UHGV virus genome: UHGV-1364246
Strand: one strand, 5' to 3'
Length of the DNA: 39,893 bases
Source: a virus
Part shown: positions 3,747 through 36,489 of the stretch, piece by piece
Numbering within the stretch: position 1 is the stretch's first letter
Layout: the number at the start of each line of letters is the position of its first letter
Translations under genes and position numbers: made by a program
The notes under the pieces: model-generated
Databases searched by the model: none
Told to the model about the DNA's origin: nothing
Seen by the model: only the letters and a program-made list of their open reading frames with translations

Positions 3747-4149
3747 CTACGTGCCTCCATGTTTTACCTGTTAATACGTCAGACAGCGTTCTCCTGGCTA
3801 CTCCCGGATATGCAGAGGTAAGCTCTGTCGCTGTTAGCCCTGACTTTCGTATGGACTTAACATCTTCGGTTGTTAGCTTGGAGTTGTAATGGCTGTCACT
3901 ATGTGGAGCGTTCTTTCTACCTTTGGAAACACAGTCTACCATGTTATCGCTATAAGTACCAACGCTCAGGTGTTCGGGATTGACGCATAGTCTATTGTCG
4001 CAGGAGTGCATCACCACTAGACCTTCTGGTATGGGACCTTTGTGTTTTAGGTAGGACACTACATGCGCTCCACGTAGCTTACCTGCATACCACTTCAGTC
4101 CATATCCAGCATTATTTACGCAGCCCTTATGCAGTATGCAGTCTGTCAT
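3739..4149 (-). CDS. HNH endonuclease (T7 gene 7.7 position)
   Basis: 136 aa; HKGPIPEGLVVMHSCDNRLCVNPEHL HNH motif. Confidence 0.7.
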   Translation of the reverse strand: MTDCILHKGCVNNAGYGLKWYAGKLRGAHVVSYLKHKGPIPEGLVVMHSCDNRLCVNPEHLSVGTYSDNMVDCVSKGRKNAPHSDSHYNSKLTTEDVKSIRKSGLTATELTSAYPGVARRTLSDVLTGKTWRHVDG

Positions 4150-4394
4150 ATAGAAATACCGCCACCAGAGGTGCGAGAGACCTGAAGGCTACGCTTACCG
4201 GAACGCTTCACTTTCTTCTCGTCAGATGCGGTCGATTCAGTATCCACATCCTCCACTTTGTCGTTCGGTACTTCCACTGGTGCTGCTGGGGTCTGAGCCT
4301 CAACAACCTTAGGCGCATCGTCAGAGCCAAGACCAACGGTCCCTAGCGTACTTTTCACCACTTTCTTGAAGGCCTTACTGATTGATTTACCCAC
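4146..4394 (-). CDS. Tail assembly / virion protein gp7.3-like
   Basis: 82 aa; MGKSISKAFKK...KRSLQVSRTSGGGISI resembles T7 gp7.3 at both ends. Confidence 0.7.
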   Translation of the reverse strand: MGKSISKAFKKVVKSTLGTVGLGSDDAPKVVEAQTPAAPVEVPNDKVEDVDTESTASDEKKVKRSGKRSLQVSRTSGGGISI

Positions 4395-4795: not shown

Positions 4796-5020
4796 TTACC
4801 CCATGTTTACGCCAGAGGCTCGCATGGCGCGGCTCACTGACGATTTATCTTTTGGTGCAGACTCCTTCTTAACCTTAAGGTCTTTGATACCTTTGGTCTC
4901 GTTTGTGTCTACGTCTGACTCAGCCCCGATGTCAACTGACGCAACTTCCTCACTCAGAGGTGCTGGTTCAGGTGCTTGGACCGAAGGCTTCGGAGTGCTA
5001 ATCTTTGGACTGAAACACAT
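4796..5020 (-). CDS. gp6.7-like small virion protein
   Basis: 74 aa; starts MCFSPKI... like T7 gp6.7; Ser/Lys/acidic-rich. Confidence 0.65.
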   Translation of the reverse strand: MCFSPKISTPKPSVQAPEPAPLSEEVASVDIGAESDVDTNETKGIKDLKVKKESAPKDKSSVSRAMRASGVNMG

Positions 5021-5034
5021 AGTCCCTCCTACAG

Positions 5035-5307
5035 TTAATCGAACTGAACGGTATCTTTCAGCTCACGACGCATAGCGATTGCAGAGTCGAGAGTGTCAGA
5101 ACAATACTGGAGACCCTTGATGAACCCGGCGATGAACGCATCGCTGTAGCCTTGCTGCTTGAGGAGACTGATAGCTCCCATCTTCTCAGCGTAACTTGCG
5201 TTGAACAATACGTGCAGGAACTGGATGGCAGACTGGGAGATGTTAGGGACATCAAGTCTTTCTTCCTGTAACTGCTTAACAACGTTTTCAATAGCATTAA
5301 TCGCCAT
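5035..5307 (-). CDS. gp6.5-position protein
   Basis: 90 aa ORF immediately downstream of a late-type promoter; syntenic with T7 6.5. Confidence 0.5.
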   Translation of the reverse strand: MAINAIENVVKQLQEERLDVPNISQSAIQFLHVLFNASYAEKMGAISLLKQQGYSDAFIAGFIKGLQYCSDTLDSAIAMRRELKDTVQFD

Positions 5308-5368
5308 CTTGAATCTCCTCTTTAAGTTAAGACTAAAGTCTATCTTATAGTCATATCTTAGGTCCTAA

Positions 5369-5391
5369 AGTCCCTATAGTGATAGTTTAGT
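5369..5391 (-). promoter_or_regulatory. Phage RNAP promoter (phi6.5-like, GGGACT start)
   Basis: Minus-sense CTAAACTATCACTATAGGGACT. Confidence 0.8.
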
Positions 5392-5517
5392 GTTTCACCT
5401 ATGGATGACTATTGGATTGATAGGATATGACTATCGGTTAGACTCAGTGTTTAGGACGGTTGTTCGACCCGAACCACTTGTACATGCAGTAAAGGGCCAG
5501 AAGTCCGGCCCAGTATA

Positions 5518-17398: not shown

Positions 17399-20080
17399 TT
17401 AAGCGAATGCAAAGTCTGAAGACAAGATGTCTTCGATATTCAGTTTACCTTTCTTCGGAAGCTCAGGCAACTTGTCGCGCTGACTCTCGTGAAGCTGGTA
17501 TTCGAACTGCTCGTAGAAGTCAAGCAGTACATCGTTGTCGCGGTAGGTCTCGACCATTGTCTCACGGACGCCACGGAACAGATACTCAGCGTCAGCCGGG
17601 ATGGTCCCGAAGCTATCGTGAATCACTGCGAATGACATCACACCATACTTGCGGTGCGTGTGGACTACAGTCTTGCGGAGGTGGCTGCCATCTTGTGAGT
17701 GGACGAAGTTCGGGCTAATGCCTGACTCCTGCTTGTGCTTGTCTAGCTCTTTCTTCGTGCCTTTGTTGACTGTAGGCTGAAGGTTGAATGACCCTAAGAA
17801 CATCAGGTTCAGACGAGTGGTATCCTTCTTGCGGTATTCCTGCCAGACCGGGAAACCATCAGGTGTGACCCAGTGTACTGGAAGGCAAGGCTTCAGGATT
17901 TCACCAGTCTTCTTGTCCTTCACTTCAGCAGCCAGCAGCTTGGCAGCACCTTGAAGCCACTTCATCGCGTCAACCGCAGCAACTACGGTCACACTCACAG
18001 CTTCCCAAATCATCTTAGCCATGAAGCGAGACGCTTGTCTTGGTTCAGTGAACATAGAGCCAGACCCTGAGTCAATCGCTGGCATCACGATGTCCTCGTA
18101 CACTTGGTCTGCGAATCCGTACTCTTTCGACCCGTAGGCCAGAGTCATGACCGAACGCTTAGTTACCTTGCGTGACATGCCGTAAGTCAGCCACTGCCTG
18201 GCCAGCTCTCGTGTCCCCAGCTTGAGGCGCTCGGTAATCTCACCAGTTTTCTTATCCTCGTGAGTCACCATCTCGTTGTCCGTACCGTTAACCAGCAGGA
18301 CTTTAAGCTCCTCCTCAATGCGGTCAGACACGATGCGGTAGATGTCTTGGACCTTACCGGAAGGCGTCAGGTTTACTGCATGTCCACCTATGTGGTCTCG
18401 AAGCATCGCGCTGAAGTGCTGAATCCCAGAGCAGGACCCATCGAAAGCTATCGGCAGCGAGCAGGAGTAAGACAAACCGTGGTGCATTACGCCAGCATAC
18501 TCGAAGCAGAACGCTAGGAAGCAGAACGGAGAGTCTAACTTACCCCACCACTCAATGCTGTCCATCGGTGCCTTAGCGGTAGCCATGATGTTGTCGTGGT
18601 TGTCTTCCACCCACTTGATGCGCTCCTCGAAGGTGACTTTATCAATACCCGCACAGTTTGCACCGTGGACCTTCAGCCATTTGAAACCATCAGCACCAAT
18701 AGGCTTACCGACTGCCAGAGTTAGGAGACCCTTCTGCATGTCGTTACCCTGAGGGTTGAACATCGGCACAGCGTAGACGCGACCACGCCAGTCCATGTTG
18801 TACGGGAACCAGATGGCCTTGAACTGAGAGAACTTGTTCGCTTGGTTAACGATAAAGCTCAGCGACAATCTGCGTGACTGTCGGGCCTTCTCTCGGCGGT
18901 AGATACCAGCAGCAGCCTTCTTCCATTCCTTGAGTTCCTCTTCAGTCTCACCCGCATAGTCTTCAGGCTTCAGCGGCTCCATCTGAGGGATGTCATCAAT
19001 AGGCGTGTTGTTCAACTTCTCTACCATGTTCACCACGTCCAGAACCTTCTTGTTCACCTTCCAAGGCGTATTCTGGATGATATTCACAGCGTCATAGACT
19101 TCAGGCATGTACACGTCTTCATAACGTGCCACCGCAGACTTAGACCCTAAGCGAATCAGTGGTAGTGGTCTGCGACCTTTGGCCCAGTACCCACCTCCTA
19201 CGACACCAGTCCACGGCTTAGGTGGAACGACACAGGGCTGGTAGACTGGAGCGATACCCGCAAGGCTGAATCCTCGTTGTGCCATCTTCTTGACCCAGAA
19301 GTCTGACAGGTGGACCATCTCGACATCAGCCGCTGCATTGCCAGCACCGTAACGCTTAAGCTCGACCAGTTGTGTTGACTGGATGACAATCTCAAGCATC
19401 TTGATTCCAACGTGGACAGCCTCGGTCGGACTCCAAGTTCCCCACGCATCTTCAAGTTGGCCTTGCTCCAGCATGGAGGTCTCAACAGCTTGCATGTAGG
19501 CTTTTTTGTAGGATGCCCCGGCGCGCTTGTTCAGGTTCTCAGCTATCGCCTTCTTGAAGTGCTCCTTCTCCTTATCACGGATGCGACCGAAGCGGATTTC
19601 ATCCTCAAGTGTGCGACCTATCGCGGAGGCCATCGGTGTAATCGGTATCCCTTCAGGCTTGACCAGCTTGGAGAGGATGACCTTCAGTATGATGACCGCA
19701 GCAGACTCACAGGAGATGCGCAGAGAGCGGTCCTTGACGGCCTTCTCTTCAGTGCTCAACATGGTGAACGCTACGCTAGGACGAGAGGTTGACAGCTTAC
19801 CGTCTGGACCTTCGTGCCACTCCTTGACGGCTTGCGCAATCTTAGGGACCAGAGTCTGCATCAAAGGCTTGGCGACCTGATTGTCTGCCAGTTCCCCGCG
19901 CTCAGTCTGTCGCTCAAGGTTCTTGATGAAACGTCGCTCGCCTTCAGTGTATGCCTCATGCTCAAGCTGAAGCTGTTTGACTGCAAGGTCTTGCCCGTAG
20001 TGGTCAGCCAGCAGGTTAAACGGCTCAATGGCGTTCGACACATCAGAGAAGTCGTGTTTGTCAATAGAGATGACGCTCAT
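17399..20080 (-). CDS. DNA-directed RNA polymerase, single-subunit (T7 gene 1-like)
   Basis: 893 aa; collinear with recalled T7 RNAP (PYNMDWRGRVYA, DGSCSGIQHFSAMLRD, HDSFGT, C-terminal FAFA); specificity-loop region reads LMFLGSFNLQPTVN versus T7 LMFLGQFRLQPTIN. Confidence 0.97.
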   Translation of the reverse strand: MSVISIDKHDFSDVSNAIEPFNLLADHYGQDLAVKQLQLEHEAYTEGERRFIKNLERQTERGELADNQVAKPLMQTLVPKIAQAVKEWHEGPDGKLSTSRPSVAFTMLSTEEKAVKDRSLRISCESAAVIILKVILSKLVKPEGIPITPMASAIGRTLEDEIRFGRIRDKEKEHFKKAIAENLNKRAGASYKKAYMQAVETSMLEQGQLEDAWGTWSPTEAVHVGIKMLEIVIQSTQLVELKRYGAGNAAADVEMVHLSDFWVKKMAQRGFSLAGIAPVYQPCVVPPKPWTGVVGGGYWAKGRRPLPLIRLGSKSAVARYEDVYMPEVYDAVNIIQNTPWKVNKKVLDVVNMVEKLNNTPIDDIPQMEPLKPEDYAGETEEELKEWKKAAAGIYRREKARQSRRLSLSFIVNQANKFSQFKAIWFPYNMDWRGRVYAVPMFNPQGNDMQKGLLTLAVGKPIGADGFKWLKVHGANCAGIDKVTFEERIKWVEDNHDNIMATAKAPMDSIEWWGKLDSPFCFLAFCFEYAGVMHHGLSYSCSLPIAFDGSCSGIQHFSAMLRDHIGGHAVNLTPSGKVQDIYRIVSDRIEEELKVLLVNGTDNEMVTHEDKKTGEITERLKLGTRELARQWLTYGMSRKVTKRSVMTLAYGSKEYGFADQVYEDIVMPAIDSGSGSMFTEPRQASRFMAKMIWEAVSVTVVAAVDAMKWLQGAAKLLAAEVKDKKTGEILKPCLPVHWVTPDGFPVWQEYRKKDTTRLNLMFLGSFNLQPTVNKGTKKELDKHKQESGISPNFVHSQDGSHLRKTVVHTHRKYGVMSFAVIHDSFGTIPADAEYLFRGVRETMVETYRDNDVLLDFYEQFEYQLHESQRDKLPELPKKGKLNIEDILSSDFAFA

Positions 20081-20149
20081 ACTTAAAGTCCTTGTTATTA
20101 GTCTTTCACTTAAAGTCTCTTTGGTCTTTCACTTGGAGTCTTAGACCTT

Positions 20150-20172
20150 GAGTCCTATAGTGATAGTTAAGT
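20150..20172 (-). promoter_or_regulatory. Phage-type promoter about 75 bp upstream of the RNAP gene (TTAACTATCACTATAGGACTC)
   Basis: Matches the -17..+2 core; GGA start as in this phage's class-II promoters; followed by a half R-site motif GACTCAAGGTC. Confidence 0.5.
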
Positions 20173-20177
20173 AAGAA

Positions 20178-20504
20178 TCACTTGCATATCAGTGGGATAG
20201 CGTGAAGATGACTGAAGTCACCATGAGACGTGTGCTTGATGGTTGACCGTTGGTCTATCGCCTTCCAGCCTGAGACTAAAAGTTTGCCATCGTCGGTTGT
20301 TGGTCGTCCACCATACGCCAGACACATCAGTTCGGACTTATGGCCCTCAGCCCGTAGTCGTGCCTGTAGTACACGGTCACGCTCCCGCTGTTGACGTGCG
20401 GTATGACTCGACGTTCCGTGACGATACCCGGTAGCCAGTAGGCTTAACATTTGCATGTCTGCGTCCATAGAGTGTACCAGATTAATCCCGTATGACTTGT
20501 TCAT
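20178..20504 (-). CDS. Hypothetical 108-aa early protein immediately upstream of the RNAP gene
   Basis: ATG at 20502-20504 with AGGAGAA upstream; His-rich C-terminus; no recognised homolog. Confidence 0.5.
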   Translation of the reverse strand: MNKSYGINLVHSMDADMQMLSLLATGYRHGTSSHTARQQRERDRVLQARLRAEGHKSELMCLAYGGRPTTDDGKLLVSGWKAIDQRSTIKHTSHGDFSHLHAIPLICK

Positions 20505-20506
20505 TA

Positions 20507-20932
20507 TTAATTCTCCTGAAGATATTTGAGTGCGCTTGCCAGAAGCTCTGGCGAATCTTTAAATTTTCCTAGACCAATGTTACACGATGCACACAATAAA
20601 CCTCGCACCTTTCCAGACTTATGACAGTGGTCTACGGCTAACCTTCTACCTGTCTCACAAGCACTACCGCAGATTTTGCACCCACCGCCTTGACCTTCCA
20701 GCATGGTAGTATATTCACCCTCCGTTATTCCATACCTAGACCTCAGGTGATAGCCTCTCTCCGTGCTTCGTGCTCTTTTCAATGAGTCGCCATTCCTGTG
20801 TTGTGACGTAACGACCGATGACACTTGACAGGGCTTGCAATATGTCTGTAGTCCGTCCCGCCTAGCCTTGTTCCTGCCAAACATAGTAGCATCCTTAGTC
20901 TCTCCACATTTGGCGCAGGTCTTTTCCATCAC
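20507..20932 (-). CDS. Endonuclease VII-family (HNH-like) protein with N-terminal zinc ribbon
   Basis: 141 aa; CAKCG...CKPC zinc ribbon, then LAVDHCHKSGKVRGLLCASCNIGLG, typical of the Endonuclease_7 family. Confidence 0.65.
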   Translation of the reverse strand: MMEKTCAKCGETKDATMFGRNKARRDGLQTYCKPCQVSSVVTSQHRNGDSLKRARSTERGYHLRSRYGITEGEYTTMLEGQGGGCKICGSACETGRRLAVDHCHKSGKVRGLLCASCNIGLGKFKDSPELLASALKYLQEN

Positions 20933-21126
20933 AGTTTGCTCCCAAGAGTTGCTATATCCCAGACGTTCGCTAGGTTGCGCATGAATCGTCCGTTAGGTTG
21001 ACGTACAGTCCAGCGACCCAGACGTACATAGTTGAATTTGTAGACTTTACGTGCCTTGTTGACGTCTCTCACCAGCACGTAGGCGATAAGTCCATAGCCT
21101 ATGGCTATCAATAGTGTTATACTCAT
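20929..21126 (-). CDS. Small hydrophobic early protein (65 aa, probable single transmembrane helix)
   Basis: MSITLLIAIGYGLIAYVLV... hydrophobic N-terminus; overlaps the Endo VII start (ATGA). Confidence 0.4.
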   Translation of the reverse strand: MSITLLIAIGYGLIAYVLVRDVNKARKVYKFNYVRLGRWTVRQPNGRFMRNLANVWDIATLGSKL

Positions 21127-21560
21127 AGTGATTTCCGTTTAATACAGTCGTATATCCCATACCCTATCAGCCAGATAACTGGCGCTAGACATACCCAATA
21201 TCCCACACCCATAGTTACCTCCTATTAATGCAAGTGGTAATCTTTGAGGCCACCTATCAGTTAGATGACCTCTCGCCTATCACTCAGTACCCGCCTGTTA
21301 GCGTTATGGTCAGGCTATGGTGATTAGCCACGTAGCAAGCCCCGCGCTTCATCATCTCGTAGCAACCATCGTAGAACGCCTGTTCACTGCTATAAGTTAT
21401 CTGGTACATGTTTACTTGTCCTCAGCGTGTAAGCTGTCGTGTATGAGCTTGCGGCCCTCATAGACCGCCTTCAGGAGACGCATAGTCGCATCGTGGTTTA
21501 ATTGCCCGGTCTTGACCATAATCCGGGCGTTGATGATGTGGTGCTGGCAGAGACCATAAG

Positions 21561-22085
21561 TTACCATCTTGATGACCTCACCTCTTGCAGCTTGGACACA
21601 AGGAAGAAGCAGTCCACCAGTATTAACTTGCCGTTCACGGCCCGTACATTGCGTGGGCTTATCTCAAACTGAATGTCAGACCCAAAGTTAGCGCAAGCAT
21701 CCATCGCCATCATCACATCCATCAGACCATCCCGCACAGTCTCAGTCTCAGACCTGTCGTGTGCAGCTTGGAATATCTCGTACCACTTGTGATACAGTTC
21801 AGCAGGTCTAGAGAATACCGGAGACCGTGAGAAGCAGTCTCGCAACACCTGATAGAGTTGCCATTGGTCATCATCTAAATGCGCCTTGAGACCTCGTGTT
21901 GGTGGCATGTAGTCCATCTCATACGTGCCTAACTCAATCATTTTGACTTCAGGGAACAGTGGAGACTCAGGGAACCATCCCCACGCCATACACTCCTTGA
22001 TTGGGTCTGAAGAGACCAGAATTACACGCTTCCCGCAGTCCTTCAGGTAGCACTTAGTGAACGCGCCTTTGCCTATCAGTTTCAT
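21561..22085 (-). CDS. Putative protein kinase-like early protein (short gp0.7-like kinase domain)
   Basis: 174 aa; glycine-rich loop LIGKGAFTKCY; C-terminal NVRAVNGKLILVD resembles the T7 gp0.7 segment NIMFSNGDVPYITD; first gene after the sigma70 promoters. Confidence 0.4.
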   Translation of the reverse strand: MKLIGKGAFTKCYLKDCGKRVILVSSDPIKECMAWGWFPESPLFPEVKMIELGTYEMDYMPPTRGLKAHLDDDQWQLYQVLRDCFSRSPVFSRPAELYHKWYEIFQAAHDRSETETVRDGLMDVMMAMDACANFGSDIQFEISPRNVRAVNGKLILVDCFFLVSKLQEVRSSRW

Positions 22086-22270
22086 CTTGTTTATCCTATA
22101 GTTAGTGACTATCAGTCAGGGCCTTCAGATGTAGACTCAAAGACCCTGTAGTTAGTCGCTATCGGCGCACATTAAGAGTTTATCCAGATTGTTAAAGAGC
22201 ATTCGCGTTGGCTGTCGTCGCCGTGCTATCCCGTTTCAGTGTTGGGACTCACTAATCTTGCCTGCCGTGT

Positions 22271-22299
22271 AAGTTACTACAGTCAAACCAGCTTGTCAA
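22271..22299 (-). promoter_or_regulatory. Sigma70-type early promoter (A-series-like): TTGACA, 17-nt spacer, TAACTT
   Basis: Minus-sense TTGACAagctggtttgactgtagTAACTT. Confidence 0.45.
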
Positions 22300-22425
22300 C
22301 CACTTTCTTAGCTCGCTTGCTGTAGTAACCTACCATCTTACTTAGTAGACCAGATATTCGCGCTGGTCACTCCGCATAGCCGATGTAGTTTATCAGTTCC
22401 GGCTCGCTGTACTGCTTGGTGAATC

Positions 22426-22454
22426 ATACTACTTTAAGTCTTACATCTTGTCAA
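22426..22454 (-). promoter_or_regulatory. Sigma70-type strong early promoter (A1/A2-like): TTGACA, 17-nt spacer, TAGTAT
   Basis: Minus-sense TTGACAagatgtaagacttaaagTAGTAT; upstream block TAAGTAGACAGCCTGATAAGTCG resembles recalled T7 sequence near A2. Confidence 0.6.
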
Positions 22455-22584
22455 CTACTTTCTGTCATCTGCCTGTTGTTCTTACGACTTATCAGGCTGT
22501 CTACTTAACCGTGATGACCCGGCGTCTTCACTATCCGGTGGTTGCCGTGTCGTGTTGACGTAAGCTATTAAGCCATAGTCTAGA

Positions 22585-22607
22585 CCTATAGTCAATAGGT
22601 AATTTGA
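22585..22607 (-). promoter_or_regulatory. Degenerate phage-promoter-like sequence near the left end (phiOL-like)
   Basis: Minus-sense TTACCTATTGACTATAGGTCTAG; only the ACTATAGG core is conserved. Confidence 0.3.
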
Positions 22608-22719
22608 GATAATATTGATTGAGCTATCGTCGGCCCCATGGTGTAAGAGGATATAGTCTTTGACTAACATGTCTTAGACCGTAAGTCTATAGCCTTTGTG
22701 TCTATTAACTGTGGGTCTC

Positions 22720-23045
22720 TGACTGTAGGTGTTGGTGTCTTATGGTTGAGACTGTAGGTTAGTGACTTATGGTCTGATACAGATAGAGACTCAAAGAAGA
22801 CCCATAGTCCCAACCTATCGTCCTGACCATCAGCCATAGCCTAGACCTATCGTAGACCTAACGTCTTGACCATTGGTCCAACCTTATGATAGACTGGGGT
22901 AGGGCCTTTGGTCTGGACTGAAAGAGGGCCTATGGGGAGACTTGAGGTTCTTGAACTGTGAGATGTGGTCTCAAACTTTTGGTCCAAAACTCATCGTCAT
23001 TACTGTAGGTCACAGCCACTGTAGGTCAAGGACCGTAGGTCAGGC
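22720..23045. repeat. Genome-end region: collapsed terminal repeat flanked by arrays of the short direct repeat (C)YGTAGGT; inferred physical left end at about 22963
   Basis: Five copies of ctgtaggt/ccgtaggt (22723, 22752, 23003, 23019, 23033), analogous to T7 ACCTAAAG arrays; minus-sense TCTCACAGT...CCCCATAGG at 22963 downward resembles the first bases of T7. Confidence 0.5.
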
Positions 23046-23200
23046 GACACTAGGATAGACCAATAAGTAGGATGACCCTAAGTGAGCTTCTCTTAAGATG
23101 TTACCTAAAGTCCTTGACTACAGTAGCTAAGGTCAGTAGAGTAGCGTCAGCTATGAACTGACCTTAGGTCTTACTTTCGTTGATTGTTACCATTACGGCG

Positions 23201-23359
23201 TTAATGACACTCAGACACCAGAGAACATACGAGAGTCTCGACCCACCCGACCCACTGACTTCCAGCAGTAACGCCAGCAGCAAGTAGAACAGCAGCAAGA
23301 AACCTGTATGTAGCTCGATTGGTCGCCAGAGCTTTAAGTACAGCTTTGGTCTTTGCCAT
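23201..23359 (-). CDS. gp19.5-like small membrane protein, 52 aa
   Basis: Translated by hand: MAKTKAVLKALATNRATYRFLAAVLLAAGVTAGSQWVGWV...; AGGAGGT 9 nt upstream; lies after the phiOR-like promoter. Confidence 0.5.
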   Translation of the reverse strand: MAKTKAVLKALATNRATYRFLAAVLLAAGVTAGSQWVGWVETLVCSLVSECH

Positions 23360-23547
23360 ATGCTACATACCTCCTGTATCTATGGTCGGTGACTATCTGT
23401 ATTGGAGGGATTATGATTAATATCACCCTCCTTCCTTCCTTCCATCGGTGCAAGCCTTAGGTAAGAACTCGGAGTCTGCCTCCTAAGGTCTTGCATAAAG
23501 TCTGCATATGTATATTCACTACAGTAATACTATAAGTAACCGGGGGT

Positions 23548-23570
23548 CTTCCCTATAGTGATAGTTAAGT
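23548..23570 (-). promoter_or_regulatory. Phage RNAP promoter near the right end (phiOR-like, GGGAAG start)
   Basis: Minus-sense CTTAACTATCACTATAGGGAAGA. Confidence 0.75.
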
Positions 23571-23664
23571 CCAAACTACTTGTAAAACAGTAGGTTAGAC
23601 TGGTAGTAACTATAGGTTACTAACCGCGTATTCATGCAGCTTTCACCCATAGTTATTCATTCAG

Positions 23665-25428
23665 TTAGTGGAACGTAACGTAGGACCCTAGTCCTAGCTC
23701 GTCGTCCGTATCGTGCGTTACCCGGACCCCATTGTCCCAGAACTCAGTGTGGATGGACTCGAATCCTTTCCGTGGGTTCTCCATCTGTTCCTCCAGCCAC
23801 TCCTCAGTGACTTCACGTTCGCCTTTGTTGGCATCCTTAGCCATAGACTCAACGAAGAACTGTACACCGATAGCCAGCGCATCAAGTCGGTCATCGTGTG
23901 CCAAGGCGCCACGTTCACGAGATATACGTGTCATCTGGTAGAAGAGAGAGTAGATAGGGTTACGAACACCATCCTTATCAGAGGCTGACTGGTAGTCTTG
24001 GACGATAGCAGCAGCGTTTACGATAAGTCGGTGAGACCCCATGATAGGCTCCAGAACGTCACAGATGCGTAGTTCTTTCTGACCCTTACTCTTCACTTCA
24101 GTTACAGCCGCAGGATGAATACGGGCAGCTACAGGCTTGAATAGCTCAAGGTACATACCATCACCGAAGTTACCCTCAATGACGTATTCGTTAACCTTCC
24201 ACTTACGACCAATCTTAGCCAAGGCTTCCAGCGTAGAGTCTTCATAGCCACCACGCATACCACCAACTTCCATAGCGAAGATGTAGCCGTTGAGCTGGTA
24301 CAGTACCGCATAGCCAGTTTCATCCTTACCACGACCACTAGGGTCAATGACCAGAATCTTCTGGGTGTACGAACTGAAGGCAGAACCTACAGTCTGATAC
24401 GTGTGGTATGAGTCACCCATGAGTCCAACGTTAGGAACGTCCTCACGCTTGTTCTGAGGGTTAGGCAACCATTGGTAGACCATTGGGCTGGACGCTGGGT
24501 CCAAGTCTGCTACGATAAGGTCACGGAGCTTCAGAGGGTACTTCTCGGCATCACTCAGGTTCGGGTTAAGCATGAACTGTAGAGCGAAACCAGCTTTACC
24601 GTACGACAACTCGCGTTCCTTCAGGTCCGTATCATCGAAGCGTACTTCATCAGTCGGACGCCAGTAGAAGGACTCAGGGTCCTCTTCCAGCTCTGCCTGA
24701 AGCATAGGAGCCAGACGGTCGCCGTAAGACTGCCAGTCCTTCCTGTCGCGTGGATAACGAGCGGGCCAGATAGTAGTGGTGTACCCACGACCTTCCAGCT
24801 CACGATACAGGGTCATCTCGTTCTGAGGAGTACCCAGATAGATGATTGTACCTCCCGGCTTCAGGATAGCGTCGAATTCTTTCACAAGCTCTGACAGACG
24901 GTCACGCGCAGCCTGAGTCGCTGAGTTGTTCGGAACTTCCACGTCATCGGCAATCAGGATGTCAGCACGACTACCAGTCAACTGACCAGTGATACCAACG
25001 GACTTAACCGAAGGTGAGTGGTCCGGCTTGGCTGGCCCAACATCAAAGCTGATAACCGCATCTCGTTGTCCCTGCTTAGGTTTGAGTTCCTGAAGCTGAG
25101 GCATGAGGTCGATGATTCGCTTGATGAAGATGGAGTTCGCATCGGCTCGTTCCTTTGAGGCCGACACAATCATGAACTTCAAGTCTGGGTTGTTCCATAA
25201 CTTCCAGACAACGAAGGCACACGTAATGAAGGACTTCCCTATACCACGGAACGCCTGTAGAATGAAGCGCCTGTTGTCCCCAGCCGATAGTTTCTTCGCC
25301 ATGTCAATCTGACAGCGAGTCGGGACCGGGAGTGACAGAGCTTTCCACAGGACGAACAGGAAGAACACGAAGTCTGACTTCATACGTGCAGTCATTAGCG
25401 CCTGACGCGCCACTAAGTCTTTACTCAA
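23665..25428 (-). CDS. Terminase large subunit (gp19-like)
   Basis: 587 aa; [28 protein letters not shown]...[18 protein letters not shown] (Walker A) closely matches recalled T7 gp19; apparent TTG start with AAGGAGGT 8 nt upstream. Confidence 0.93.
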
Positions 25429-36466: not shown

Positions 36467-36489
36467 AGTCCCTATAGTGATAGTTAAGG
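36467..36489 (-). promoter_or_regulatory. Phage RNAP promoter (phi13-like, GGGACT start)
   Basis: Minus-sense CTTAACTATCACTATAGGGACTATAGG; a partial duplicate of the core (CTATAGG) follows. Confidence 0.75.

Follow-up and report, generated by a model that had tools for sequence, protein, structure and literature searches.

The window analysed here is the whole 39,893-nucleotide stretch of the virus genome UHGV-1364246, and the element in question is its early region, the genes between positions 20178 and 22085 that precede the gene of a T7-type RNA polymerase. We found that the first gene of this region (21561..22085, minus strand) encodes a 174-aa protein that is predicted to be a minimal protein-kinase-like enzyme (hereafter, the mini-kinase). 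It lies in the slot of gene 0.3 of phage T7, in which related phages carry one of two anti-restriction genes, Ocr or S-adenosylmethionine (SAM) lyase. The best explanation overall, to which we assign a probability of roughly 0.55, is that the early region is modular, that the mini-kinase in its first slot (slot 1) acts in counter-defence, and that an endonuclease VII (Endo VII) gene in the same region is a separate insertion. We regard the mini-kinase as a strong candidate for a counter-defence function not described before, and one that can be tested.

The region appears to be the host-RNA-polymerase-transcribed early region of a Kayfunavirus, with a fixed backbone on the minus strand that takes interchangeable cassettes. 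In the direction of transcription, the backbone begins with host-type promoters, a leader hairpin, slot 1, a homologue of T7 gp0.4 (51 aa), a 41-aa gene and a middle slot that is empty in the window; then come the genes of the 29-aa, 65-aa and 108-aa proteins, followed by a phage promoter and by gene 1, the RNA polymerase gene. The open reading frames (ORFs) named in an earlier reading of this DNA (the original prediction), which are the 174-aa, 65-aa hydrophobic, 141-aa Endo VII and 108-aa His-rich ones, were all confirmed in place on the minus strand. The original prediction called the region remodelled. This is correct relative to T7, but the same backbone is present in about 213 GenBank records.

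The window was compared with 20 related early regions, three from GenBank and 17 from IMG/VR, which makes 21 loci. The 51-aa, 41-aa, 65-aa and 108-aa genes and gene 1 form the conserved backbone of this set. Slot 1, which is located directly before the 51-aa gene, contains Ocr in 12 of the 21 loci, the 174-aa protein in six (the window, L001, L005, L006, L007 and L018) and SAM lyase in three, and no region contains two of these cassettes together. The lyase is a 150-aa protein of the T3 gene 0.3 type (Pfam PF23780, E 1e-39). When the window is aligned with an Ocr-carrying phage, nucleotide homology ends at 22101, 16 bp before the ATG, and restarts at 21568, at the start of the next gene; the swapped cassette extends from 22100 to 21569. 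Therefore, the swapped unit is exactly the gene and its ribosome-binding site, and the mini-kinase gene, as the first gene of the region, is an exact allelic replacement of the two anti-restriction genes. RNA polymerase N-termini are 97-100% identical to that of the window across phages with different slot-1 cassettes, and by this measure the backbones of Ocr phages and mini-kinase phages are equally close to the window. Since this identity persists despite the change of cassette, the swaps are recent relative to the divergence of the backbone.

The original prediction that no Ocr-like acidic mimic is present held. In tblastn searches of the whole 39.9-kb window, Ocr of T7 and Kayfunavirus gave no match anywhere, and neither did the T3-type SAM lyase or two T7 0.7-type kinases. 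No strongly acidic ORF was found in the early region, where the isoelectric points (pI) of the ORFs range from 5.9, that of the 174-aa protein, to 11.0; the only ORFs whose pI falls below 5 are short, lack annotation and are located in the non-coding left end.

The AlphaFold2 model of the 174-aa protein has a predicted local distance difference test (pLDDT) score of 95.9 and a predicted template modelling score of 0.90. It has a two-lobed kinase fold, with a beta-sheet and a short alphaC helix in the N-lobe and a helical C-lobe bearing the catalytic loop. Foldseek matched the model to phage 'protein kinase' entries of BFVD (E 4e-5 and 6e-5) and to APH(2'') in PDB (E 7e-4). The protein has no Pfam, NCBIfam or PADLOC match, and its sole sequence-profile match is phrog_11084, a family without assigned function. 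Thus, the kinase-like call of the original prediction is borne out by the predicted fold and by Foldseek but not by sequence-profile searches, which give no kinase match.

The residues expected in an active site were then compared over 265 homologues, in which G7, K30, E141, N146 and D158 are each kept in 261-264 sequences (>98%). In the glycine-rich loop I-G5-K-G7-A-F9, G7 is found in 262 and F9 in 256 sequences. This loop aligns with LGRGKYS of CK2alpha in a profile-to-PDB alignment that is not significant (E 0.36), and the same alignment lays FEISPRN on the HRDVKPRN loop of CK2alpha and LLD on its DWG. The beta3 strand (VILVSS) has no conserved Lys; K30 (261/265) and E31 (243/265) are located in the short alphaC helix. 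In the catalytic loop F-E141-I-S-P-R-N146, Glu is found in 264 and Asn in 262 sequences, so that Asn is retained and Asp is replaced by Glu. In alignments of low significance, E141 falls on the Asp of the HRD motif in CK2alpha and on FD in the T7 gp0.7 kinase (T7K). The metal-binding motif D158-C-F160 (D in 263 and F in 259 sequences) contains the DFG-type Asp. The protein ends 16 residues past this motif, which agrees with the prediction that it lacks a T7-style shut-off domain. The near-invariance of the glycine-rich loop, K30, E141-x-x-x-x-N146 and D158-C-F suggests that the protein would be an active ATP-dependent phosphotransferase. We concluded that it is an active-looking, minimal and atypical kinase-like enzyme.

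It may be asked whether the protein is instead a pseudokinase or a non-catalytic nucleotide-binding protein that serves as a scaffold or decoy, since both the canonical HRD Asp and the VAIK Lys are missing. However, the conservation of E141, N146, D158, K30 and G7 across such diverged sequences is as in a catalytic site, and we consider this explanation very improbable. A less remote but still unlikely alternative is a small-molecule kinase, which would phosphorylate a metabolite, a cofactor (for example, one for restriction or BREX) or an immune signalling nucleotide and not proteins. It is consistent with the best Foldseek matches in PDB, which are aminoglycoside and corramycin phosphotransferases, with the choline/ethanolamine kinases among the BFVD matches, and with the model, in which neither an activation segment nor substrate-binding helices are present past the DFG-like motif. 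Moreover, SAM lyase, one alternative cassette of the same slot, acts on a small molecule.

The mini-kinase belongs to a large family that occurs in unrelated phage groups. A word-index search found 154 homologues, and when the family profile was searched exhaustively it yielded 758 clusters (at 50% identity), of which 447 scored E <= 1e-10. In the best 150 clusters listed, nearly all members are stand-alone proteins of about 160-190 aa. The family is located mainly in phage records and phage-sized contigs. Among GenBank phages it was found in 84 records, 38 of which have at least 80% identity and are nearly all of Kayfunavirus type; the remaining carriers are Dickeya Aarhusvirus, Klebsiella podophages, Seurat-type siphoviruses, Cellulophaga phi19:3 and Pseudomonas phiPsa374-type myoviruses. 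Yet these proteins are annotated as hypothetical almost throughout, except for 'serine/threonine kinase' in some Dickeya records. In the Dickeya and Klebsiella podophages, the family member is likewise located upstream of the RNA polymerase gene. When 144 neighbours from 25 non-Kayfunavirus loci were compared with PHROGs and Pfam, most were unknowns, no partner family was recurrent, and Ocr was nearby in just one lineage.

In one metagenomic phage contig (L057, 2394-5630, plus strand), the mini-kinase domain forms residues 871-1055 of a 1078-aa ORF. No Pfam domain was found in the extra parts of this fusion or in those of longer family members. The neighbours of the mini-kinase gene in L024-L058 include one pentapeptide-repeat protein, and others are methyltransferases. 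The pentapeptide-repeat fold is known for DNA mimicry.

This distribution also bears on the idea of a general host-takeover kinase, which would retune transcription, translation or RNA processing, so that its place in slot 1 would reflect early timing and not counter-defence. T7 0.7 was first described as a host-takeover kinase according to its annotation, the neighbouring genes, including the gp0.4 homologue, are host-takeover genes, and the mini-kinase and a T7-type kinase are found together in none of the 21 Kayfunavirus loci. However, Dickeya phages carry both the mini-kinase and a T7-type kinase, so the two are not simply redundant. In addition, the mini-kinase precisely replaces two dedicated anti-restriction genes, and its patchy spread over unrelated phage families would be typical of accessory counter-defence genes. 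We regard a host-takeover kinase as quite unlikely.

The counter-defence role that we prefer would depend on the timing of expression. DNA of T7-like phages enters the cell slowly, and expression of gene 0.3 precedes the entry of most restriction targets. Slot 1 corresponds to this position, that of the first gene transcribed on DNA entry, with the mini-kinase there in place of Ocr or SAM lyase. The mini-kinase would be made before most of the genome has entered and may phosphorylate host proteins, of which restriction-type or other DNA-targeting defence proteins would be the likeliest targets. Both of these anti-restriction proteins act against type I restriction-modification and BREX (PMC7261183, bioRxiv 10.1101/2023.02.27.530186). 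The mini-kinase may do by enzyme what Ocr does by mimicry and SAM lyase by cofactor removal. The unrelated kinases T7 0.7 and JSS1_004, which would offer a parallel, act as anti-defence kinases and disable defences that target DNA (PMC13645617, PMC12345140). Ocr is itself a trigger of PARIS (PMC11455837), and host systems that sense Ocr, such as PARIS, are a possible selective pressure for the mini-kinase.

Several observations weigh against this role. No sequence-profile library identifies the 174-aa protein as a kinase. With the catalytic Asp changed to Glu and the beta3 Lys not conserved, its chemistry may differ from protein phosphorylation, and its top Foldseek matches in PDB are small-molecule kinases. 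Sharing a slot with anti-restriction genes is circumstantial. Furthermore, the mutual exclusion of Ocr and the mini-kinase was found in 21 phylogenetically related loci and fails outside the genus. In L041, L043, L044 and L045, Ocr is present at about 3750-4095 and the mini-kinase at 5001-5500, two genes apart. These Ocr homologues are 60-65% identical to Kayfunavirus Ocr and lie 0.9 kb upstream of the mini-kinase gene. The lineage is unrelated to Kayfunavirus and consists of large phages, with some contigs of 77-141 kb. With both genes present there, the two are not mutually exclusive outside Kayfunavirus. The presence of Ocr near a family member in an unrelated lineage is at the same time further circumstantial support for a counter-defence role.

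We also make a broader and more tentative proposal, in which we have less confidence than in the explanation above. The family phrog_11084 may be an unrecognised class of phage counter-defence proteins, a minimal kinase with Glu in its catalytic loop that is made first on entry and inactivates restriction- or BREX-type defences, or a cofactor that they need, by phosphorylation. It would be a third interchangeable solution in T7-like phages, beside Ocr and SAM lyase. In our literature search, nothing specific was found on the mini-kinase family, on a kinase in the Ocr slot or on Kayfunavirus early genes. The textbook case of a gene that enters first and disarms restriction is gene 0.3 of T7-like phages, and a slot that alternates between Ocr, SAM lyase and the mini-kinase provides a sharply defined and easily tested candidate for an anti-restriction or anti-defence mechanism. 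The slot-1 cassette of a therapeutic Kayfunavirus may help to set its host range.

The gene that follows the mini-kinase lies in a stretch of about 430 bp (21127-21560) that the original prediction described as ORF-poor. The stretch is in fact densely coding, with genes for 51-aa, 41-aa and 29-aa proteins; Bas105 annotates all three, and GA2A annotates the 51-aa and 41-aa ones. The 51-aa gene (21412..21567, minus strand) has a start that overlaps the stop codon of the 174-aa gene, and its product matches phrog_5058 (E 4e-26). In a blastp comparison with five T7 early proteins, it matched gp0.4 with 37% identity over 41 aa (E 1.4e-4). The PHROG matches are reciprocal: the 51-aa protein matches phrog_5058 and phrog_7202, T7 gp0.4 matches phrog_7202 and phrog_5058, and the cross-matches are at E 9e-5 and 3e-3. 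T7 gp0.4 resembles the 51-aa protein also in its length, in its place directly after slot 1 and in the overlap of start and stop codons. Although weak, the similarity is consistent, and it suggests distant homology between the 51-aa protein and T7 gp0.4. T7 gp0.4 targets FtsZ as an inhibitor (PMC4944311, PMC13423816).

The 41-aa protein (phrog_33188; 21284..21409, minus strand) is 83-100% identical in 13 of the 20 related loci, and the 51-aa and 41-aa genes are found in most of these loci with 75-100% amino-acid identity. The 29-aa gene (21123..21212, minus strand) encodes a hydrophobic peptide without a PHROG match. It has an AGGAGG ribosome-binding site and a stop codon that overlaps the start of the 65-aa gene, and Bas105 annotates its equivalent as a 90-bp coding sequence (CDS).

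The 65-aa protein (phrog_2385, E 2.9e-32; 20929..21126, minus strand) has one N-terminal hydrophobic helix and a basic tail, with a pI of 11.0. Its gene is present in 19 of the 20 related loci and is a core early gene of the genus. No meaningful Pfam, NCBIfam or PADLOC match was obtained for the 65-aa, 51-aa and 41-aa proteins. Judging from their sequences, the products of the 65-aa and 29-aa genes are small peptides of membrane type; they resemble T7 gp0.5 in kind and have no homology to it.

The 108-aa protein (phrog_7066; 20178..20504, minus strand) is basic (pI 9.6) and moderately His-rich, with eight His (7.4%). Its gene occurs in every one of the 21 regions, and the 213 phage records of GenBank that contain it are all Kayfunavirus-like. 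The N-terminus is variable, and the C-terminal part of about 83 aa, ending in GDFSHLHAxPLICK, is highly conserved. The protein has no Pfam, NCBIfam or PADLOC match and no PDB match by profile search. Structure prediction, which the original prediction had proposed for the 174-aa and 108-aa proteins, was informative for the former, with its confident kinase-like model, and not for the latter, whose AlphaFold2 model (pLDDT 52) is unusable. Profile searches, proposed for every ORF, likewise identified the Endo VII protein (PF02945) and the 51-aa protein (through PHROGs linked to gp0.4) but left the 174-aa and 108-aa proteins without a Pfam match and with PHROGs, phrog_11084 and phrog_7066, that give no function. 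The 108-aa protein was also considered as a detached shut-off domain of T7 0.7. It has weak local similarity to T7 0.7 (ARQ..DR..AR..EG and GDF..L), and this candidate was rejected, with an hhalign probability of 0.2% against T7 0.7 and an alignment of the shut-off domain. Because the 65-aa, 29-aa and 108-aa genes are genus-core genes, their products are more likely to serve host takeover than to be variable counter-defence cargo.

These results change the standing of the small proteins, which had been proposed, with the other unknowns, as candidates for counter-defence or host takeover. The 65-aa and 108-aa genes belong to the genus-conserved core and are not novelties of this phage, and the 51-aa gene is predicted to be a gp0.4 homologue. 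As a counter-defence candidate, the 174-aa protein stands by virtue of its slot; the two core genes and the Endo VII gene, which appears to be mobile, are less likely ones.

The Endo VII gene (20507..20932, minus strand) encodes a 141-aa nuclease of phrog_2633 with an N-terminal CxxC...CxxC zinc ribbon. The family assignment of the original prediction was verified by Pfam Endonuclease_7 (PF02945; E 2.8e-26, 91.6 bits against a cut-off of 23.6), and the relatives in PDB are Hpy99I (E 2.5e-8) and T4 Endo VII. The DHxH...CxxCN motif of these beta-beta-alpha-Me nucleases is intact in the 141-aa protein (DHCH...CASCN). Of the 21 loci, two contain the gene, the window and L015, whose copy is 61% identical, and the insertion site between the 65-aa and 108-aa genes is common to these two only. 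In the relatives, homology is lost at 20921 and 20506, and the inserted unit is therefore the CDS itself, placed between the 65-aa and 108-aa genes. Relatives in the phage database are 44-52% identical; the best, at 52%, is a homologue in IMM-002-type phages at a similar distance into the record. Related Endo VII genes occupy other, scattered positions in T3-like and T7-like phages. We compared the gene with the free-standing homing endonucleases of T7-like phages, such as gene 13.5 of phiYeO3-12. Because its presence/absence is polymorphic with exact borders between conserved genes, the pattern points to a mobile, free-standing insertion of the homing-endonuclease type. Nothing in this pattern suggests a counter-defence role. 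Residues 2-44 (20801-20929, minus strand) match phrog_5558, 'Lar-like restriction alleviation protein' (E 2.9e-10); this is probably generic zinc-ribbon similarity.

The middle slot, between the 41-aa and 29-aa genes, contains a T7 0.7-type kinase in L003 and an 87-aa gene in L001. At the empty slot of the window there is an intergenic element of 57 bp (21231..21287, minus strand) with a hairpin (z = -2.3). This element has one copy in the window and aligns twice in L001 (about 3760-3816 and 4202-4258) and in L003 (about 2050-2104 and 2856-2912), on either side of the extra gene. This suggests that cassettes of the middle slot are gained or lost through recombination between the 57-bp repeats. 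A third version of the early region is found in L009 (2622-3823), L010 and L015, where the T3-type SAM lyase (150 aa) and a DUF7300 protein (78 aa) precede the 41-aa gene and a 115-aa helix-turn-helix protein and then a T7 0.7-type kinase follow it.

Of the sigma70 promoters predicted upstream of the first gene, one strong and one weaker candidate site were found. The strongest promoter-like site, TTGACA-17-TAGTAT (22426..22454, minus strand), has 10 of 12 consensus matches, which is a consensus match alone, and may be analogous to the T7 A promoters; the weaker site is TTGACA-17-TAACTT (22271-22299, minus strand). A host-type promoter is also annotated at the corresponding place in GA2A. Just upstream of the first early gene, at the upstream border of the slot-1 swap, is a conserved leader hairpin (22098..22163, minus strand) of -22.9 kcal/mol (z = -3.83), which none of 200 shuffles matched in folding. 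Over the leader flank 22101-22204, the Ocr-carrying phage L003 has 98% identity to the window. The hairpin is a probable RNase III-type processing site, like R0.3 of T7. At the other end of the region, a promoter core of the phage-RNA-polymerase type, TAACTATCACTATAGG (20154..20169, minus strand), lies directly upstream of the RNA polymerase gene. The core (A/T)AACTATCACTATAGG has 11 minus-strand copies in the window, whereas chance would give 0.24; the copies are at 20154-20169, 23552-23567, 36471-36486 and eight other places. A 47-bp element with this core precedes gene 1 in six of seven relatives compared. Since an exact core lies directly before the RNA polymerase gene, it implies that gene 1 would be positively autoregulated via its upstream phage promoter; T7 has none at that position.

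The early-region genes are all on the minus strand. In minus-strand reading, after the terminase large subunit gene (23665-25428) come the right and left ends of the genome, the early region and the T7-type single-subunit RNA polymerase gene (17399..20080, minus strand), which is the downstream anchor of the early region. A megablast search with 20081-23664 matched 230 phage records, mostly Kayfunavirus (Autographiviridae, Studiervirinae), with 88-94% identity among the matches listed. Because no record covers more than 81% of the query, the early region is a mosaic. When the window is aligned with GA2A, in which a terminal repeat of 165 bp is annotated, the physical left end of the genome falls near window position 22964, and in GA2A the first early gene, that of the 174-aa protein, begins 1,138 bp from this end. 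With the left end inside it, the window is judged to be a circularly permuted, near-complete Kayfunavirus genome. The non-coding left-end region (22600-23100, minus strand) contains dispersed short words of the 'CCTACAGT' and 'CTATAGGT' types. Such words are typical of T7-like genome ends. By these comparisons, the early region is a usual one for its genus, and dozens of sequenced phages already contain it: the backbone in the approximately 213 GenBank records that share the 108-aa gene, and the layout with the 174-aa gene in about 38 GenBank phages, where it is annotated as hypothetical.

Among known systems, Ocr (T7 gp0.3) and the T3-type SAM lyase share the slot and the flanks of the mini-kinase, and each is the first gene expressed. 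They have no relation to it in sequence or fold, and Ocr is an acidic DNA mimic; equivalence in function would follow from position only.

In fold, T7K and JSS1_004 of Kayfunavirus JSS1 are closer to the mini-kinase. They are likewise phage early proteins with a protein-kinase-like fold that are almost restricted to phages, and T7K-type proteins are among the nearest viral structural neighbours of the mini-kinase in BFVD. In T7K the DFG motif is replaced by DPV, and a shut-off domain forms the C-terminal part (PMC13645617). The hhalign alignment with T7K is collinear through 150 columns that start at the glycine-rich loop and end at the DFG-like Asp, and places the mini-kinase motifs on FDxHxxN...DPV of T7-type kinases; its probability is low (14.7% for the single sequence and 7.7% for a five-sequence profile). 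The mini-kinase has FEISPRN in its catalytic loop where T7K has FDxHxxN, and DCF where T7K has DPV. It is located in slot 1, whereas the T7K type is located before gene 1. It has 174 aa, whereas T7K and JSS1_004 have about 244-359 aa, and it has neither an N-terminal extension nor a shut-off domain. Among PHROGs it belongs to phrog_11084 and not to phrog_15752 or phrog_2828. The possibility that it is a shortened T7 0.7 kinase was rejected on the basis of its gene 0.3 slot, the hhalign probabilities of 8-15% and the Dickeya phages that carry both. Depletion of Ser, Thr and Tyr, the signature of T7K phages, was not evident in the early proteins, which are too few and too small for a meaningful comparison.

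The minimal effector kinases OspG of Shigella and NleH1 of E. coli have 13-15% sequence identity to the mini-kinase. Both retain the catalytic Asp and the beta3 Lys. Unlike the mini-kinase, they are bacterial effectors that act on eukaryotic hosts. The 174-aa protein would be among the smallest kinase-like enzymes known, with an unusual catalytic Glu.

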